From Kiritimatiella glycovorans (GTDB taxonomy: Bacteria > Verrucomicrobiota > Kiritimatiellia > Kiritimatiellales > Kiritimatiellaceae), in assembly GCF_001017655.1 (NCBI RefSeq), contig NZ_CP010904.1:2550001-2582000 (forward strand): 32,000 nucleotides of DNA, written 5' to 3'. Each line of letters starts with the position of its first letter. Within the stretch, counting starts at the first letter, position 1. This document shows positions 4,018-17,959 of the stretch, in pieces. A program made the position numbers and the translations under genes. The notes beneath the pieces are model-generated. The model searched no databases. It was not told where the DNA came from and saw nothing but the letters and a program-made list of their open reading frames with translations.

Positions 4018-4896
4018 ATGAACGCAGAAACCACACCGAATCCGGCGGCTGCTCCGCACGACCGCTTTATGGCGCGTTGGCGCGAAGAACTGGAGCGTTC
4101 CCTCGAACACCTCGCTCCCGCGGAGGACGTCCGCCCCGGACGCCTGCACCGGGCGATGCGCCACGCCCTTTTTCCCGGCGGAAAGCGCCTCCGTCCGATG
4201 CTCTGCCTCGCGGCCGCGGAGCTCTACGGCGAAGTCGGCGGGACCGCGCTCCACGCCGCCTGCGCGCTTGAATTCTTTCACACCTACACGCTGGTGCACG
4301 ACGATCTTCCCTGCATGGACGACGACGATACGCGCCGGGGGCGGCCGACGGTCCATCGCGCCTTTGACCCCGCGCTGGCGGTGCTCGCGGGAGACGCGCT
4401 GCAGACCCTGTCCTTCGAAGTCCTCGCCGGCTGCGCGCCGCAGGACCCCTGCGGACCGGGCCGGCTCGTCGCTGAACTCGCCTCCGCGGGCGGGAGCCGC
4501 GGCGTGGCCGGGGGACAGGCCGGGGATCTGGCCGCCGCGGAGACCCCGCCGGACGCGGAGCAGCTCGACTACATCCACCTGCACAAGACCGCGGCCCTGA
4601 TCCGCGCGGCGGTCCGCATCGGAGCCATGTGCGGAGGGGCCCGTGCCGACGATCTCGAGGCGCTCTCCGAATACGGATGCGAACTCGGACTTGCATTCCA
4701 GATCATAGACGACCTGCTCGACACGAAGCGCGACGGCGAACAGGCGGATTACGTCAAGGTGCACGGAAAGGCGGAGGCGCGCGAGGCCGCCGAGGCCCGC
4801 ACCGCCGCGGCGCTCGCCGCCCTGGGCCGGATCCGTCACCGCGACACCGCCGTCCTGCACTCCTTCGCGGAAGAAATGCTGAAGCGGAACGTCTAG
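4018..4896 (+). CDS. ispA: Polyprenyl diphosphate synthase (FPP/GGPP synthase type)
   Basis: 292 aa. First Asp-rich motif LVHDDLPCMDDDDTRRG and second motif FQIIDDLLD. Confidence 0.9.
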   Translation: MNAETTPNPAAAPHDRFMARWREELERSLEHLAPAEDVRPGRLHRAMRHALFPGGKRLRPMLCLAAAELYGEVGGTALHAACALEFFHTYTLVHDDLPCMDDDDTRRGRPTVHRAFDPALAVLAGDALQTLSFEVLAGCAPQDPCGPGRLVAELASAGGSRGVAGGQAGDLAAAETPPDAEQLDYIHLHKTAALIRAAVRIGAMCGGARADDLEALSEYGCELGLAFQIIDDLLDTKRDGEQADYVKVHGKAEAREAAEARTAAALAALGRIRHRDTAVLHSFAEEMLKRNV

Positions 4897-5284
4897 CGTT
4901 CGGGTCTCAGGTCTCAGCCCTCCCACTCAACCCCTGATCCCCTCTTACTCAGGTTTCAGGTTTCAGCCCTCCCACTCAATATCCAATCCCCTCTTACTCA
5001 GGTTTCAGGTTTCAGCCCTCCCACTCAACCCCTGATCCCCTCTTACTCAGGTTTCAGGTTTCAGCCCTCCCACTCAACCCCTGATCCCCTCTTACTCAGG
5101 TTTCAGGTTTCAGCCCTCCCACTCAACCCCTGATCCCCTCTTACTCAGGTTTCAGGTTTCAGCCCTCCCACTCAACCCCTGATCCCCTCTTACTCAGGTT
5201 TCAGGTTTCAGCCCTCCCACTCAACCCCTGATCCCCTCTTACTCAGGTCTCAGGTTTCAGCCCTCCCACTCAATATCCAATCCC
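4893..5284. repeat. Tandem array of 8 x 49 bp (consensus CTCTTACTCAGGTTTCAGGTTTCAGCCCTCCCACTCAACCCCTGATCCC)
   Basis: Unit starts at 4893, 4942, 4991, 5040, 5089, 5138, 5187 and 5236. Units 3-7 are identical, and units 1, 2 and 8 are variants. The array spans from the ispA stop to 4 nt before the lpxB stop. Confidence 0.95.
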
Positions 5285-5288
5285 CTCT

Positions 5289-6428
5289 TCATCTGCCCAC
5301 GTCCCGGATGATCAGCCGTGCGACGTTTTCTTCGGGCAGCGAGGCGGTGTCGAGCACCGTCCAGATCTCCCTGAAGATCGCGCGCATGGTGCCGCGCAGG
5401 TCGTCATCGTCGAGCAGTCGTTCGACCGCCTCGGACAGTCGGCCGGGGGTGGCCTTTTTCTGGATGAATTCGGGACACACCTCGCGGCCTGCGACCAGGT
5501 TGACGATACCGAGATAGGGCACGCGGATGAGCATCCGGCCGAGCAGGTAATTGAGCCAGTGGGTCTTGTAGACGACGGCGGTCGGGCACTCGAACAGGGC
5601 GCTCTCGAGCGTCGCCGTACCGGACGCCACGAGGGCCGCGTCGGCCTGGCGCAGCACCTCGCGGGTCGAGCCGGCCACGAGTTCGGCGCCGCGCACCGCC
5701 CCTCCCAGCGCGTCCCAGATCTGCTGCGCGGTCTCCTGCTGCCACCGGGGCACGGAGATCAGGAATCCCGTTTCGGGGCGGCGACGGCGGAGCTGCAGCA
5801 CGGTCTGACGAAACACCGGCAGCAGGTAGCGCAGCTCCTGCCGGCGGCTTCCCGGCAGGAGCGCGATTCTTCGCTCGCCGGGCCACGGCATCGGAACCGG
5901 ACGGCTCTGCCGGTGTTCGCAGATCTCCTCGACGAACGGGTGCCCGACGAAATCCACATTCAGGCTCGTTCCGCGAAACACGTCGGGTTCGAAAGGGAAG
6001 ATGACCATCAGCCGGTCGATCGCTTCAGCCATCCGGCCGATACGTCCGCGATTCCAGGCCCAGACCTGGGGGGAGATGTAGTAAAAGACCTTCACGCCGC
6101 GGCGTTTGAGCTGCCGCGCGAGGCGCAGGTTGAAGCCGGGGTAGTCGACCAGCAGGGCGGCCTCCGGCCGGCGGGCCTCGACCTCGTCGAGTACGTGCCG
6201 GAAGACCCGGCGAAAGAAGGAGAGTCGTTCCAGCACCTCCGAGATCCCCAGCACCGCCATGTCGGAGACGTCGTAGAGACACTCCATCCCTTCGGCGCGG
6301 CACGATTCACCGCCGACCCCCCAGAGCGTCCAGTCCGCACCGCGCCGCCGGAGGGCCTTGAGCACCCGTCCGACGTGCATATCGCCCGACTCTTCGCCGG
6401 TCACTACCAGCAGGTTATCCTCGGCCAC
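5289..6428 (-). CDS. lpxB: Lipid-A-disaccharide synthase
   Basis: 379 aa. N-terminal VVTGEESGDMHVGRVLKAL and the hallmark SPQVWAWNRGRI motif. Confidence 0.9.
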   Translation of the reverse strand: MAEDNLLVVTGEESGDMHVGRVLKALRRRGADWTLWGVGGESCRAEGMECLYDVSDMAVLGISEVLERLSFFRRVFRHVLDEVEARRPEAALLVDYPGFNLRLARQLKRRGVKVFYYISPQVWAWNRGRIGRMAEAIDRLMVIFPFEPDVFRGTSLNVDFVGHPFVEEICEHRQSRPVPMPWPGERRIALLPGSRRQELRYLLPVFRQTVLQLRRRRPETGFLISVPRWQQETAQQIWDALGGAVRGAELVAGSTREVLRQADAALVASGTATLESALFECPTAVVYKTHWLNYLLGRMLIRVPYLGIVNLVAGREVCPEFIQKKATPGRLSEAVERLLDDDDLRGTMRAIFREIWTVLDTASLPEENVARLIIRDVGR

Positions 6429-10995: not shown

Positions 10996-11060
10996 TTATT
11001 TTCTGGTTCTTCTGGATTTTTGTCACGAATAACCAAAATCCATTGGTACGGAGAACGCCT

Positions 11061-11100
11061 TTCTTACTCAGGGTTCAGCGCTCACGCTCAGCCTCAGTCC
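11061..11100. repeat. Solo, diverged member of the CTTACTCAGG(T/G)TTCAG repeat family
   Basis: TTCTTACTCAGGGTTCAGCGCTCACGCTCAGCCTCAG abuts and overlaps the PP2C gene stop codon (11094-11096). Confidence 0.55.
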
Positions 11101-13284: not shown

Positions 13285-13968
13285 TCATGAATTTTCCGGC
13301 CCCAGGATGAGTACGCACTCACCCTTGAGCTTGCGGTCTGCGAGTGCGTCGCGCAGTTCCGCGGCTTCGGCGAGCCGGGTCTCTTCGTAGAGCTTGGTCA
13401 GTTCGCGGGCGAAAAAGACCGTGCGGTGATCGCCGCACACCGCGGCCACGTCCTTGAGAAGCGAGAAGATCCGGTACGGCGATTCGTAGAACACCACCGG
13501 AAGTTCCGTATCCTTCCAGCGTTCCAGCTCGCGCCGGCGCTTCGCGGGCTTGCGCGGCGGGAATCCCGCGAACACGTGTCCGCGGTCGCCGAACCCGCTC
13601 AGGGCCAGGGCCGTGCTCACGGCGGTGGGCCCGGGGATGCAGGTCACGAAGAGGCCCGCCTCCCTGCAGGCGCGGACCACGCGCGCGCCCGGGTCGGAGA
13701 CCGAAGGCATCCCGGAGTCGCTGACCAGCGCCACGGCCTCGCCGTCGTCCCGAATGCGACCCAGCACCGCCTCGACCCTGGAGGCCTCGTTGAACCGGTG
13801 GCAGCTCACGGCGGGGGTCTTCAGCTCAAAGCGTGACAGCAGTTTCCGCACCCGCCGCGTGTCCTCGGCAAAGACCACGTCCGCCGCCCCCAGCACCTCG
13901 CACCCGCGGGGCGAGAAATCGTCCAGATTCCCGATCGGCGTCCCTATAATGTACAGTCCTCTATCCAT
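13285..13968 (-). CDS. rsmI: 16S rRNA (cytidine1402-2'-O)-methyltransferase
   Basis: LYIIGTPIGNLDDFSPRG and SDSGMPSVSDPG signatures. I prefer the ATG at 13968, because the ORF-track extension to 14073 is read through a dispersed repeat. Confidence 0.88.
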   Translation of the reverse strand: MDRGLYIIGTPIGNLDDFSPRGCEVLGAADVVFAEDTRRVRKLLSRFELKTPAVSCHRFNEASRVEAVLGRIRDDGEAVALVSDSGMPSVSDPGARVVRACREAGLFVTCIPGPTAVSTALALSGFGDRGHVFAGFPPRKPAKRRRELERWKDTELPVVFYESPYRIFSLLKDVAAVCGDHRTVFFARELTKLYEETRLAEAAELRDALADRKLKGECVLILGPENS

Positions 13969-14056
13969 TTCCACGGCCTCAGGAGAACATAAAAAAGGGG
14001 CGAGTAAAAGCGCGGCCACGAAAAGGCACAAAAAATGTAGACGGGGGACAAAACCG

Positions 14057-14198
14057 GCCACGAAAGGGCACATAAAGCACAGAAGAGCTATAGGACAGGG
14101 CTACTCAGGAGAGCAGAAGAGGAACAGGGCCGGTCACCTCTGATCCCGTCTCCCGGCATTTCTCCATTTCTTCTGAGTCTTTTGTGCCCTTTCGTGGC
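14057..14198. repeat. Imperfect palindromic cassette d (arms built from the dispersed 20-mer)
   Basis: GCCACGAAAGGGCACA at 14057-14072 versus TGTGCCCTTTCGTGGC at 14183-14198 match 16/16. The arms extend imperfectly to about 30 bp (CAGAAGAG / TCTTCTGAG). Confidence 0.8.
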
Positions 14199-14230
14199 TC
14201 TCTATCTCCTCTGAGCCTTTTGTGCAGCAG

Positions 14231-14362
14231 TTCTCATTATGGCCGCATTCCGACCGCGGACGGCGTGGCAGCCGTCCCTCCCGAGTCGATATCCGACGCC
14301 TTTTTGGGCATTGGGAGGGTCGGGTGCCACCCCGACCGAAAAGGGTGAAGCCATAATGAGAA
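14231..14362. repeat. Imperfect palindromic cassette a with two internal hairpins
   Basis: Arms TTCTCATTATGGC (14231-14243) and GCCATAATGAGAA (14350-14362) match 13/13. Internal hairpins are GGACGGC-GTGGCA-GCCGTCC (14258-14277) and GGTCGGG-TGCCAC-CCCGACC (14318-14337). CCCTCCC (14276-14282) can also pair with GGGAGGG (14313-14319). Confidence 0.85.
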
Positions 14363-14428
14363 TCGCTGCCTTTTGTGAGTTCTTCGTAATTTTTATGGTG
14401 AGCGGCGGCAAGTCCGCTCGCGTCAAAA

Positions 14429-14547
14429 CGTACGCGTACTCGTACTCAGCGAAGCGGTACTCGTACTCGAATTCCTTGAATCGGGGGAGGGGGATCGCGC
14501 CTTCGGCGCTCCGAGTACGAGTACGAGTACGAGTAAGAGTACGAATT
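14429..14547. repeat. Palindromic cassette b built from GTACTC / GAGTAC hexamer runs
   Basis: GTACTCGTACTC occurs at 14437-14448 and 14457-14468. It faces GAGTACGAGTACGAGTACGAGTAAGAGTAC at 14513-14542. A small central hairpin GCGCC-TTCG-GCGC lies at 14497-14509. Confidence 0.8.
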
Positions 14548-14744
14548 ATGTTCACCCCCCCTCAACCAACCTTCATGCTCTTCATGTGAAGGTAGGGACG
14601 GACCTCCGAGCCATCCGCAAAACCGGCGCGCTTAGCCTGTCCGCCGAAGGCATAAAGGGCCGAAGGCGGAGAGATCGCGCCCCACCCGGAAATCGCAAAG
14701 ATGAATGAGAAGAGCACAGGCAAAGAAATGGTGCGTTCTCTCTT

Positions 14745-14844
14745 ACGTTCGTAGTAGGCCCGCAGGTCCGCGCAGCGGACAAGGGCCGTTACGCTCACGC
14801 GCCCGGCCTGCCGAGGGGCAGGCGTGCGGCGCTACTACGAACGT
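14745..14844. repeat. Imperfect palindromic cassette c with two internal hairpins
   Basis: Arms ACGTTCGTAGTAG (14745-14757) and CTACTACGAACGT (14832-14844) match 13/13. Internal hairpins are GTCCGC-GCA-GCGGAC (14766-14780) and CCTGCC-GAGG-GGCAGG (14807-14822). The right arm contains the maf stop codon. Confidence 0.8.
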
Positions 14845-15506
14845 TTGTCGTCTTCCATCCCGCCTCTTCCCCGAACGGCTCCACCACAAAAATCTGCGAA
14901 GAACCCTTTTGTGCCTTTTCGTGGCCCGTCCCTTTTCTGCGCCTCTTCGAGGCCTTCGACGACCTCGCAGAGCGGGAGGCCCACGACGTTGGTATACGAT
15001 CCGCGAATCGCGCGGACCATCGGCGCCGCGCCGCCCTGAATGCCGTACGCCCCCGCCTTGTCCATCGGCTCGCCGGTGCGGACATAGCGCTCGATCTCTG
15101 CCGCCGTCAGGGTTTTGAATTCGACCTCCGTAGACACGGAGAATGTTTGTTCGCGTGCTCCGGCGAGGATACACACGCCCGTGATCACGCGATGGGTGCG
15201 GCCGGAGAGCCGGCGGAGCATCGCCGCGGCCTCCCGCCCGCCGGAGGGCTTGCCGAGGATATCTCCGCGGTGAGCGACCACGGTATCCGCCGCCAGCACG
15301 ACCGCATTCCCTGGAGCCGCGACCGCGCGCGCCTTCTCTGCGGCGAGCCGGAGGGCGTGCGCTTCGGGCCCCTCTCCGGCGAGCGCCGCCTCGTCGATCG
15401 CCGGAACCGCGACCCTGAAGTTCAGGCCGAGCTGTTTGAGCATACGGCGCCGCCGGGGCGAACCGCTCGCGAGCACGAGTTCGAGTTCCGCAAGATGCTC
15501 AGACAT
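14835..15506 (-). CDS. maf: Maf-family nucleoside triphosphate pyrophosphatase
   Basis: LVLASGSPRRRRML and KAGAYGIQGG signatures. I prefer the ATG at 15506 (MSEHLAELELVL...), which overlaps the ROK gene stop by 8 nt. The C-terminal 25-30 residues are read out of repeat sequence. Confidence 0.88.
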   Translation of the reverse strand: MSEHLAELELVLASGSPRRRRMLKQLGLNFRVAVPAIDEAALAGEGPEAHALRLAAEKARAVAAPGNAVVLAADTVVAHRGDILGKPSGGREAAAMLRRLSGRTHRVITGVCILAGAREQTFSVSTEVEFKTLTAAEIERYVRTGEPMDKAGAYGIQGGAAPMVRAIRGSYTNVVGLPLCEVVEGLEEAQKRDGPRKGTKGFFADFCGGAVRGRGGMEDDKRS

Positions 15507-16461
15507 GCTGCGTCCCGGAGAGGCCCGCCAGGGCCACGGCCAGCGCGCCGCGTTCACCCAGCCGGTCGAGGCGGGTGACCTCGAGCCGACACCCGTCGTA
15601 GACGGGCTTCCAGGTATACGCCTTGAGCCTGGCCCGCAGGTCGTCCATCACCAGATCCTCTTCATGCATGGCGATCGTGCCCAGCACGGCGGCGGCCGGG
15701 TTGAAGGCCATCAGGATCGAACCGACGCCCTGGGCCATCCGTTCCATGTACTCGTCCCACCGCTCGAGCGCGTACGGGTCCCGGCGGCGCACGGCCGCGG
15801 AAAACTCGCGCATGGAGATGCGCGCCGGATCCCCGCCCGCCTCTTCGAGGATCAGCGTATCGATATGGCGGTCGACGATCTCCGCGCGCAGCCGGTCGGC
15901 CGTGGCGCGCCCGCCGCAGTAGGCCTCGAAACACCCTTTCAGCCCGCAGGAACAGGGCAGACCGTCGAGTTCCAGCGTGATGTGACCGATCTCTCCGGCG
16001 TTGTCGTTGACTCCCTGCAGGATACGGCCGGAGGAGATGATGCCTCCGCCGATGCCGGTGCTCATGGTCAGGTAGATGAACGGATCGGCTCCCGCGCACG
16101 CGCCGAACATCCACTCCGCCAGCGCCGCGGCGTTGGCGTCGTTGTTCATGTAGACGGGCGCGTCGAAGCGCTCCCTGAGCAGTGAACCGAGGTGCAGCCC
16201 GGACCAGTCCATGTTGGGGCTTGTGAGCATCCGCTGCCCGTGGCAGTCGAGCGGGCCCGGCGCGGAGACGCCGACCGCCTTCAGCCCGTCCGGCGCGTGG
16301 CGGCGGATCAGGGGGTCAATGAGTTCCGTGAGCCTGCGAAGGGTATCCTCGCCGTCCCCGGGGTCGGTCGGCACCCGCACGGCATCCAGAAGCGTGCCCT
16401 GCTCGTCGCCCACCGCGGCCGCTGTTTTGGTCCCGCCAATATCAATGCCTGCAATTGCCAT
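15499..16461 (-). CDS. ROK-family sugar kinase (glucokinase / N-acetylhexosamine kinase type)
   Basis: 320 aa with IAGIDIGGTKTAAAV and the ROK zinc motif CSCGLKGCFEAYCGG. Confidence 0.88.
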   Translation of the reverse strand: MAIAGIDIGGTKTAAAVGDEQGTLLDAVRVPTDPGDGEDTLRRLTELIDPLIRRHAPDGLKAVGVSAPGPLDCHGQRMLTSPNMDWSGLHLGSLLRERFDAPVYMNNDANAAALAEWMFGACAGADPFIYLTMSTGIGGGIISSGRILQGVNDNAGEIGHITLELDGLPCSCGLKGCFEAYCGGRATADRLRAEIVDRHIDTLILEEAGGDPARISMREFSAAVRRRDPYALERWDEYMERMAQGVGSILMAFNPAAAVLGTIAMHEEDLVMDDLRARLKAYTWKPVYDGCRLEVTRLDRLGERGALAVALAGLSGTQHV

Positions 16462-17431: not shown

Positions 17432-17839
17432 ATGATACGTCCAGCCAAACGGGAAGCCCTGCAGCGGGAGATGACGTCGCTCGGTATCGAGGAGAGCGAC
17501 CTCGAGGAGAGTTTCATTAAAGGCTCCGGAAGCGGAGGGCAGAAAATCAATAAGACCTCCTCGTGCGTGCAGCTTCGCCATATCCCCAGCGGGATCGAAG
17601 TCCGCTGCCAGCGGTCCAGATCGCGCGCCGACAACCGGTATTTCGCGCGCCGCGAACTCTGCCGCAAGATCGAGGAACAACGTAAGGGCGAAAAAAGCGA
17701 GAAACGCAGGGAGATCGAAAAAATACGCCGCGCGAAGCGGCGGCGCTCACGCCGGGCCAAAGAACGGATGCTTCAGAACAAAAAACACCAGGCGGAGAAA
17801 AAGCGGCGGCGGCGTGAGGGAGGTGAGTATTTTGAGTGA
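17432..17839 (+). CDS. Small GGQ-motif peptide chain release factor-like protein (RF-1 domain / ArfB-like peptidyl-tRNA hydrolase)
   Basis: Only the last 135 codons of the 542-aa plus-strand ORF look real. They read GSGSGGQKINKTSSCVQLRHIPSGIEVRCQ followed by a long Lys/Arg-rich tail, with the ATG at 17432. Confidence 0.75.
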   Translation: MIRPAKREALQREMTSLGIEESDLEESFIKGSGSGGQKINKTSSCVQLRHIPSGIEVRCQRSRSRADNRYFARRELCRKIEEQRKGEKSEKRREIEKIRRAKRRRSRRAKERMLQNKKHQAEKKRRRREGGEYFE

Positions 17840-17959
17840 GAGACCTGAGACCTGAAACTTGAGTAAGAGACCCCTTCACTCAGGTCTCCCACTCATTTCT
17901 TACTCAGGTCTCAGGTCTCTTCACTCAGGTTTCAGGTCTCAGGTTTCCCACTCAACTCT
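17834..17959. repeat. Cluster of the CTTACTCAGGTYTCAGG repeat family in inverted and direct orientation; possible bidirectional terminator
   Basis: GAGTGAGAGACCTGAGACCTGAAACTTGAGTAAGAG (17834-17869) is the imperfect reverse complement of TTCTTACTCAGGTCTCAGGTCTCTTCACTC (17898-17926). Further direct partial units run to 17959. The cluster fills the gap between two convergent stop codons. Confidence 0.8.

Follow-up and report, generated by a model that had tools for sequence, protein, structure and literature searches.

A REP doublet with two different stems inside a Nezha-like MITE of Kiritimatiella glycovorans

Described REP doublets and MITEs, and how the locus compares

The y, z1 and z2 REPs of Escherichia coli 'differ ... 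but nevertheless retain complementarity', and a BIME joins one y and one z in inverse orientation (PMC3333891). The RAYT enzyme family acts on single-stranded DNA, and E. coli TnpA-REP requires a mismatch in the stem of its REP (PMC3333891). In the REPINs of Pseudomonas fluorescens, compensatory changes across the two sides preserve a long hairpin (Bertels and Rainey 2011, PMC3116915). A further related system is the Nezha MITE/ISNpu3 pair of Nostoc and Anabaena (Zhou, Tran and Xu 2008, as summarised in PMC3184786), which we compare here as far as that summary describes it.

We analyzed a 144-bp sequence cassette in a window of 32,000 nucleotides of the Kiritimatiella glycovorans genome (NZ_CP010904.1), whose own numbering is used below unless genome positions are given. 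The cassette combines known kinds of repeat: a REP doublet of the y/z type, headed by GGAG, that is enclosed in a Nezha-like MITE. It shares several traits with the E. coli REP/BIME and TnpA-REP system (Ton-Hoang et al. 2012, PMC3333891; Nunvar et al. 2010, PMC2817692): the palindromes are short, GC-rich and numerous, have a conserved 5' head and are arranged both in tandem and as inverted doublets; REPs lie on either side of the gene for their own Y1/HUH transposase (a REPtron); and, as in the BIMEs, a doublet unites two REP types whose stems vary at some positions while keeping their complementarity. It differs from E. coli in that the head is GGAG or TGGAG (GGGAG in the MITE) instead of GTAG, that a perfect 7-bp stem carries a 6-nt loop without the mismatch that TnpA-REP requires, that REPs lie in frame inside the RAYT gene, that the host is a Kiritimatiellales genome, and that the doublet is enclosed by inverted ends of the DDE type. 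REPINs likewise consist of an inverted REP doublet plus spacer that is repeated as a unit, linked to a RAYT and predicted to form a hairpin. In contrast to REPINs, the differences seen here preserve each local stem and place four mismatches in the long hairpin, and REPINs have neither DDE terminal inverted repeats nor a 9-bp target duplication. The Nezha MITE, which we liken to the cassette by its summarised description and not by its published sequence, is similar in its size of ~130-170 bp, its flanking direct repeats, its very stable predicted fold and its use of the ends of an insertion sequence (IS) absent from the host genome; here, however, the interior is a lineage-specific REP doublet and the host is not a cyanobacterium.

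Our favored reading, to which we assign a probability of about three in four, is that the cassette is a head-to-head REP hetero-doublet with a RAYT partner, riding as a passenger in a DDE-mobilized MITE of the Nezha/ISNpu3 type.

The hairpins, their family and the RAYT gene

The 7-bp stem of hairpin 1 (14258-14277), GGACGGC/GCCGTCC, is perfect and encloses the loop GTGGCA; that of hairpin 2 (14318-14337), GGTCGGG/CCCGACC, is equally perfect and encloses the loop TGCCAC. The 26-nt arms in which they lie (14257-14282 and 14313-14338) form an inverted repeat with 85% complementarity, and all four arm-to-arm mismatches fall in two base pairs of each local 7-bp stem, leaving both stems perfect. The preliminary description of this DNA had reported that the hairpins differ at four stem positions, each change being matched by its pairing partner, and our coordinates and sequences agree with it. 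By a combinatorial estimate, four random arm mismatches would land as two compensated local pairs with a chance of ~21/14950 x 1/9, or ~1.6e-4.

Table 1. Positions in the window of the MITE, its parts and the neighboring genes
Feature	Positions	Strand	Remark
TP_methylase/RsmI-like gene	13285-14073	-	
Left 9-bp target-site duplication	14216-14224	.	CCTTTTGTG
Whole MITE, 144 bp	14225-14368	+	one of 64 genome copies, 92-100% identity
Left terminal inverted repeat, 19 nt	14225-14243	+	
REP hairpin 1	14258-14277	- (canonical REP orientation)	stem variant A/C
Complement (CTCCC) of the GGGAG head of hairpin 1	14278-14282	-	
Central spacer	14283-14312	.	two small weak hairpins; most variable among copies (14300, 14305, 14311)
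GGGAG head of hairpin 2	14313-14317	+	
REP hairpin 2	14318-14337	+ (canonical orientation)	stem variant T/G
Right terminal inverted repeat, 19 nt	14350-14368	-	
Right 9-bp target-site duplication	14369-14377	.	CCTTTTGTG
Maf	14835-15557	-	

Both hairpins follow one family form, a GGAG head and GGWCGGS-loop-SCCGWCC, which in the reverse reading becomes GGWCGGS, the loop GTGGMA and SCCGWCC, followed by CTCC. Around 100 hairpins of the same family lie outside the MITE in this genome, in tandem arrays with periods of 41, 43, 129 and 140 bp. Hairpins of this family flank and interrupt, in frame, a RAYT gene at genome positions 452094-452846 (L081:2094-2846), the hairpins extending across 451.8-453.0 kb. 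Its open reading frame matches NF047646, the NCBIfam model of REP-associated tyrosine transposases, with an E value of 1.4e-18 and 67 bits, a score that falls short of the threshold of 80, the match being split by REP-derived sequence; it also aligns with E. coli TnpA-REP (4ER8) in the HUH and catalytic-Tyr motifs, at an E value of 0.006. The frame stays open through the REP-derived insert between the HUH and Tyr parts. Among 40 relatives belonging to other families of the order, 30 have a homologue of the gene and some have the hairpin itself with its flanks. The same REP accompanies the two closest homologues, either at the gene or within it; in the closest (L084:1501-2079 of G005, from another family of the order) the REP is at the same place. 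The stem variants A/C, T/G and A/G, preceded by a conserved TGGAG head, are found again in other families of this order. From their arrays outside the MITE, their position around the RAYT gene and their recurrence in relatives, we conclude that the hairpins are GGAG-tagged REPs whose family has a REPtron. None of these hairpins was found near the three Pfam Y1_Tnp matches elsewhere in the genome.

Across genomes the head 5' of the hairpin is conserved as (T/C)GGAG, with GGGAG in the MITE, whereas canonical families have GTAG. Relative to most free REPs, those of the MITE carry G for T in both the head and the loop, and may for that reason be poor RAYT substrates. Pairing between the head (TGGA) and the loop (TCCA) was considered as well and found no support, as the MITE variants change both partners without compensation.

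We then asked how well the local stem is supported by covariation. The preliminary description had proposed looking for it among homologous copies of the cassette, which proved uninformative: in their hairpins the 64 MITE copies carry nothing but singleton changes, with no compensated one, and they are too similar to one another for covariation to be testable. The REP family, in contrast, gave strong support for the local 7-bp stem, both in this genome and in relatives. A hairpin pattern with N at all four variable stem positions matched 220 hairpins in this genome, where composition predicts 0.06 and a reversed-pattern control gave 0. Pair 3-18 was Watson-Crick in 217 of the 220 and pair 7-14 in every one, with all four stem combinations represented (counts of 82, 73, 44 and 18). 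At the RAYT loci of relatives, where matches were ascertained solely by the GGAG head, the GG...CC stem base and a 6-nt loop, all five of the five free pairs were complementary in 40 of 54 matches, compared with 1 of 65 in shuffled loci, and the REPs had 20 distinct stems. When 46 of these REPs were aligned, 92.7% of cells were paired versus 61.1% in shuffles, and the covariation score was 0.705 versus 0.146, a value reached in none of 500 shuffles. Each of the five variable pairs has changes on both of its sides, and slid controls gave 31-55%. The local 7-bp stem is thus strongly supported by covariation. A REP sub-family at the RAYT loci of G016 and G006 (L095 and L097) keeps two adjacent G/A-A/G non-Watson-Crick positions in its stems while the neighboring pair covaries, C-G versus G-C, which suggests that tandem G·A mismatches are tolerated there.

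The MITE, its copies and its ends

BLAST against the complete genome (2,949,723 bp, one contig) returned 64 copies of the cassette at 92-100% identity, most of them at 96-100%, and every copy begins and ends with the same 19-nt inverted repeat; in the copy studied here the two ends agree at 17 of 19 positions (14225-14243 versus 14350-14368). The 9-bp target duplication is perfect in 49 copies and has one mismatch in 7 more, and the 49 perfect duplications comprise 43 distinct sequences. Copies are divided 32:32 between the strands. With its inverted ends, fixed 9-bp duplication, small size, lack of coding sequence and many copies, the cassette is a MITE, a non-autonomous DDE transposon. The 144-bp element was not found in the 40 relatives in other families of the same order. 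An empty-site paralogue was sought in the genome as well and none was found, the flanks belonging to other repeat families and the junction being spanned by no copy.

The copy lies between the Maf and TP_methylase/RsmI-like genes, in an 866-bp stretch crowded with repeats of other families. The gene-free stretch is bracketed by a perfect inverted pair of 20 nt (14014-14033 and 14907-14926, 873 bp apart); further copies of its motif are found at 14057-14076 and 14179-14198, and the target duplication of the MITE falls in a partial copy. Directly to the right of the MITE is a palindromic element built of GTACTC/GAGTAC hexamer runs (14378-14600, core 14429-14543), which has over 60 BLAST matches genome-wide and so represents another abundant repeat family. 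A 49-bp tandem repeat array of ~8-10 units (4802-5338), with solo and inverted relatives elsewhere in the window (11055-11083 and 17832-17956), belongs to a family separate from the MITE and the REPs.

We next searched for the source of the MITE ends. With two positions left free, the 19-mer of the ends was found in at least 120 stretches of GTDB representative genomes from many phyla, the hosts including Kiritimatiellia, Victivallales, Verrucomicrobiota, Anaerolineae, Methylococcales, Acetobacteraceae and cyanobacteria. Among these are 37 complete MITEs, 48-321 bp long and unrelated in their interiors. About ten of them have identical 9-bp flanks, and in many others the flanks differ at one or two positions. 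A full-length IS bounded by these ends, 1454 bp in size (L120:6436-7889), codes for a DDE protein of 434 aa that matches IS4 weakly; homologues of this transposase on cyanobacterial plasmids are annotated 'ISNCY family transposase', and the ends of the ISNCY element on Nostoc punctiforme pNPUN02 match at 16 of 19 positions. Judged by these sequence similarities, the MITE ends fit those of a widespread IS4-like "ISNCY" insertion sequence of the Nezha/ISNpu3 type, the last assignment being made by published description. A pair of ends 2.7 kb apart in L134 was rejected as an IS, as it encloses cytochrome and ABC-binding-protein genes.

In the K. glycovorans genome, the MITE ends occur nowhere outside the MITE copies, so no parent IS was seen, and searches with the L120 and Nostoc transposases returned no related transposase (best E value 0.65). 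The MITE has spread to its 64 sites by means of a transposase that the genome seems no longer to encode. A 1492-bp element of the IS256 family was tried as the parent and rejected, its ends being unrelated and its duplications 8 bp long. This element is present in nine copies (for example at genome positions 2841449-2842940 and 1787331-1788975), seven of which contain the MITE at the same internal site, which indicates that the MITE multiplied a second time as a passenger of the IS. At genome positions 2609719-2610576, two oppositely oriented MITE copies flank a 431-bp IS256-family fragment with a further IS fragment beyond, an arrangement that looks like a rearrangement between MITE-bearing IS copies.

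Hetero-doublets, alternative explanations and a proposed route

The compensatory changes did not originate in the cassette itself: both hairpins are pre-existing REP sub-types that are also found in the arrays, at the RAYT locus and in other genomes. The interior of the MITE can be aligned with a 140-bp array unit found at 1.111 Mb, which contains the same A/C and T/G REPs with their heads inward, and the similarity reaches into the bases flanking each hairpin; since the array holds the same pair, the stem differences predate the MITE. In this genome, 10 of 11 kinds of site have inverted REP neighbors that combine A/C with T/G or A/G with T/C, the exception being the RAYT locus, where A/G adjoins A/C. 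Close inverted doublets at RAYT loci in relatives are hetero-doublets in ~15 of 15 cases, each stem being individually perfect, although these counts are not independent events, given that arrays arise by duplication and that this genome has just two pair types.

REP doublets carried by MITEs with these ends are of the GGAG type in this genome and in L131, and of the GTAG type in L118/L135/L163, L143 and L154. Those of L118/L135/L163 form a hetero-doublet with three compensated differences that is present in ~90 copies in genome G041, an unrelated MAG; copies of it in G041, borne by MITEs with the same 19-nt ends, lie, for example, at L224:1460-1580 and L228:1470-1600, some copies having decayed ends. 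A cognate RAYT was sought in that genome, and the MITE-borne GTAG doublet was absent from the four RAYT loci fetched. Homo-doublets occur in the same-end MITEs of other genomes (L131, L151 and L166). It is conceivable, if somewhat short of an even chance, that Nezha/ISNpu3-type MITE shells repeatedly pick up host REP doublets in unrelated phyla, so that a cut-and-paste DDE transposase spreads the substrates of an unrelated single-strand HUH system, that of the RAYT, and that these doublets are usually made of two mutually unpairable stems. If true, the usual union of two such stems in a doublet would imply selection for the separate folding of each REP.

The predicted fold bears on this point. 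The lowest-energy structure predicted for the 144-nt single strand is a single long hairpin interrupted by four 1x1 mismatches (-88.2 kcal/mol as RNA and -45.9 kcal/mol as DNA), and either strand yields such a hairpin, with z values of -10 and -8. Forcing both local hairpins gives -78.8 (RNA) and -37.9 kcal/mol (DNA), so that the long hairpin is predicted to beat the two local ones by 8-9 kcal/mol. Were both REPs of the same variant, the minimum would fall to -108.0 (RNA) and -60.4 kcal/mol (DNA); the stem differences thus remove ~20 (RNA) or 14.5 kcal/mol (DNA) of the advantage of the long hairpin, without reversing it. Because the long hairpin is the minimum-energy fold, separate folding would need kinetics or the help of a protein. 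The proposal that local 7-bp stem-loops, rather than one long hairpin, are the selected unit therefore stands in part: the strong covariation of the family and the weakening of arm-to-arm pairing by ~20 kcal/mol speak for the local stems, whereas the predicted minimum-energy fold stays the long hairpin.

The compensated stems might instead be the product of a mutational mechanism, in which template switching within a quasi-palindrome copies a change in one arm onto the other. Templated quasi-palindrome correction, known from mutagenesis in E. coli and phage T4, makes perfect stems with paired changes in a single step, and the finding that a mere 3 of 220 hairpins are imperfect would be in keeping with it. 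Against this, the GGAG head and a small set of stem variants have been conserved between different families of the order, and 20 distinct stems keep one architecture beside RAYT genes, which argues for long-term maintenance and not merely mutational bias. We regard template switching as an unlikely explanation in its own right; it could nevertheless supply variants for selection or amplification.

Rather less probable still is that the enzyme does not require separate hairpins and that the hetero-stem design avoids a long perfect palindrome, unstable through cruciform cutting or slipped replication. Such a view could account for the nearly invariable hetero-pairing of close inverted doublets and for the penalty that same-variant REPs would incur in deepening the long hairpin (by the ~20 and 14.5 kcal/mol given above). 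Yet several same-end MITEs of other genomes contain homo-stem doublets or a single long perfect palindrome (L131, L151, L166, L164 and L168), and a long stem is already provided by the 19-bp ends of the MITE. At 20 bp, moreover, the arms are far shorter than those known to be strongly unstable. Avoidance of palindromes may contribute to the design.

That the cassette encodes a structured RNA, with local stem-loops, possibly joined by kissing loops, as the selected feature, we consider very improbable: the stems are perfect and belong to a covarying family, complementary six-nucleotide loops can in principle kiss (as in TAR-TAR*-type complexes), and this copy could be co-transcribed with the maf and rsmI-like genes, which point the same way on either side of it, but the whole window has no Rfam match at the gathering threshold, a scan of 13900-14900 revealed no promoter- or terminator-like site, the copies are spread evenly over both strands (32:32) and over 43 distinct duplications, either strand is predicted to fold into one long hairpin, and the same hairpins flank the gene of an enzyme of single-stranded DNA. 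Nothing that we found points to an RNA function for the cassette. The possible loop-loop contact of the preliminary description is correct in that the 6-nt loops are complementary; this complementarity comes with inversion alone, as any inverted pair of one hairpin has complementary loops, and does not speak for a kissing contact.

For a REP hetero-doublet riding in a MITE, we propose the following route. The RAYT encoded at ~452 kb, a REP-associated tyrosine transposase of the HUH/Y1 type, would be the partner of the REP family and, by analogy with E. coli TnpA-REP, would bind the folded hairpin together with its 5' head in single-stranded DNA. A stem under such constraint would need to pair with itself and nothing else, and REP sub-families would therefore come to differ by double, compensated substitutions. 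The A/C and T/G doublet would already have been part of the REP pool of the genome before it became a passenger between the MITE ends, and an IS4-like DDE transposase would then have copied the MITE to 64 sites, leaving the 9-bp target duplications. On the same analogy, pairing within the stems is probably maintained because the RAYT binds the DNA hairpin, and having two different stems would help each REP to fold alone.

REPs and MITEs are usually treated as separate classes of small repeat with unrelated enzymes, whereas here a REP doublet rides in a MITE, and the REP copy number of a genome need not reflect RAYT activity. For annotators, the locus is a warning that 'compensatory changes' in such cassettes stem from DNA-level repeat biology and mark no RNA gene. 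The natural set of stem variants, four in this genome and about twenty in its relatives, with a GGAG instead of a GTAG head, is usable to test what a RAYT reads.
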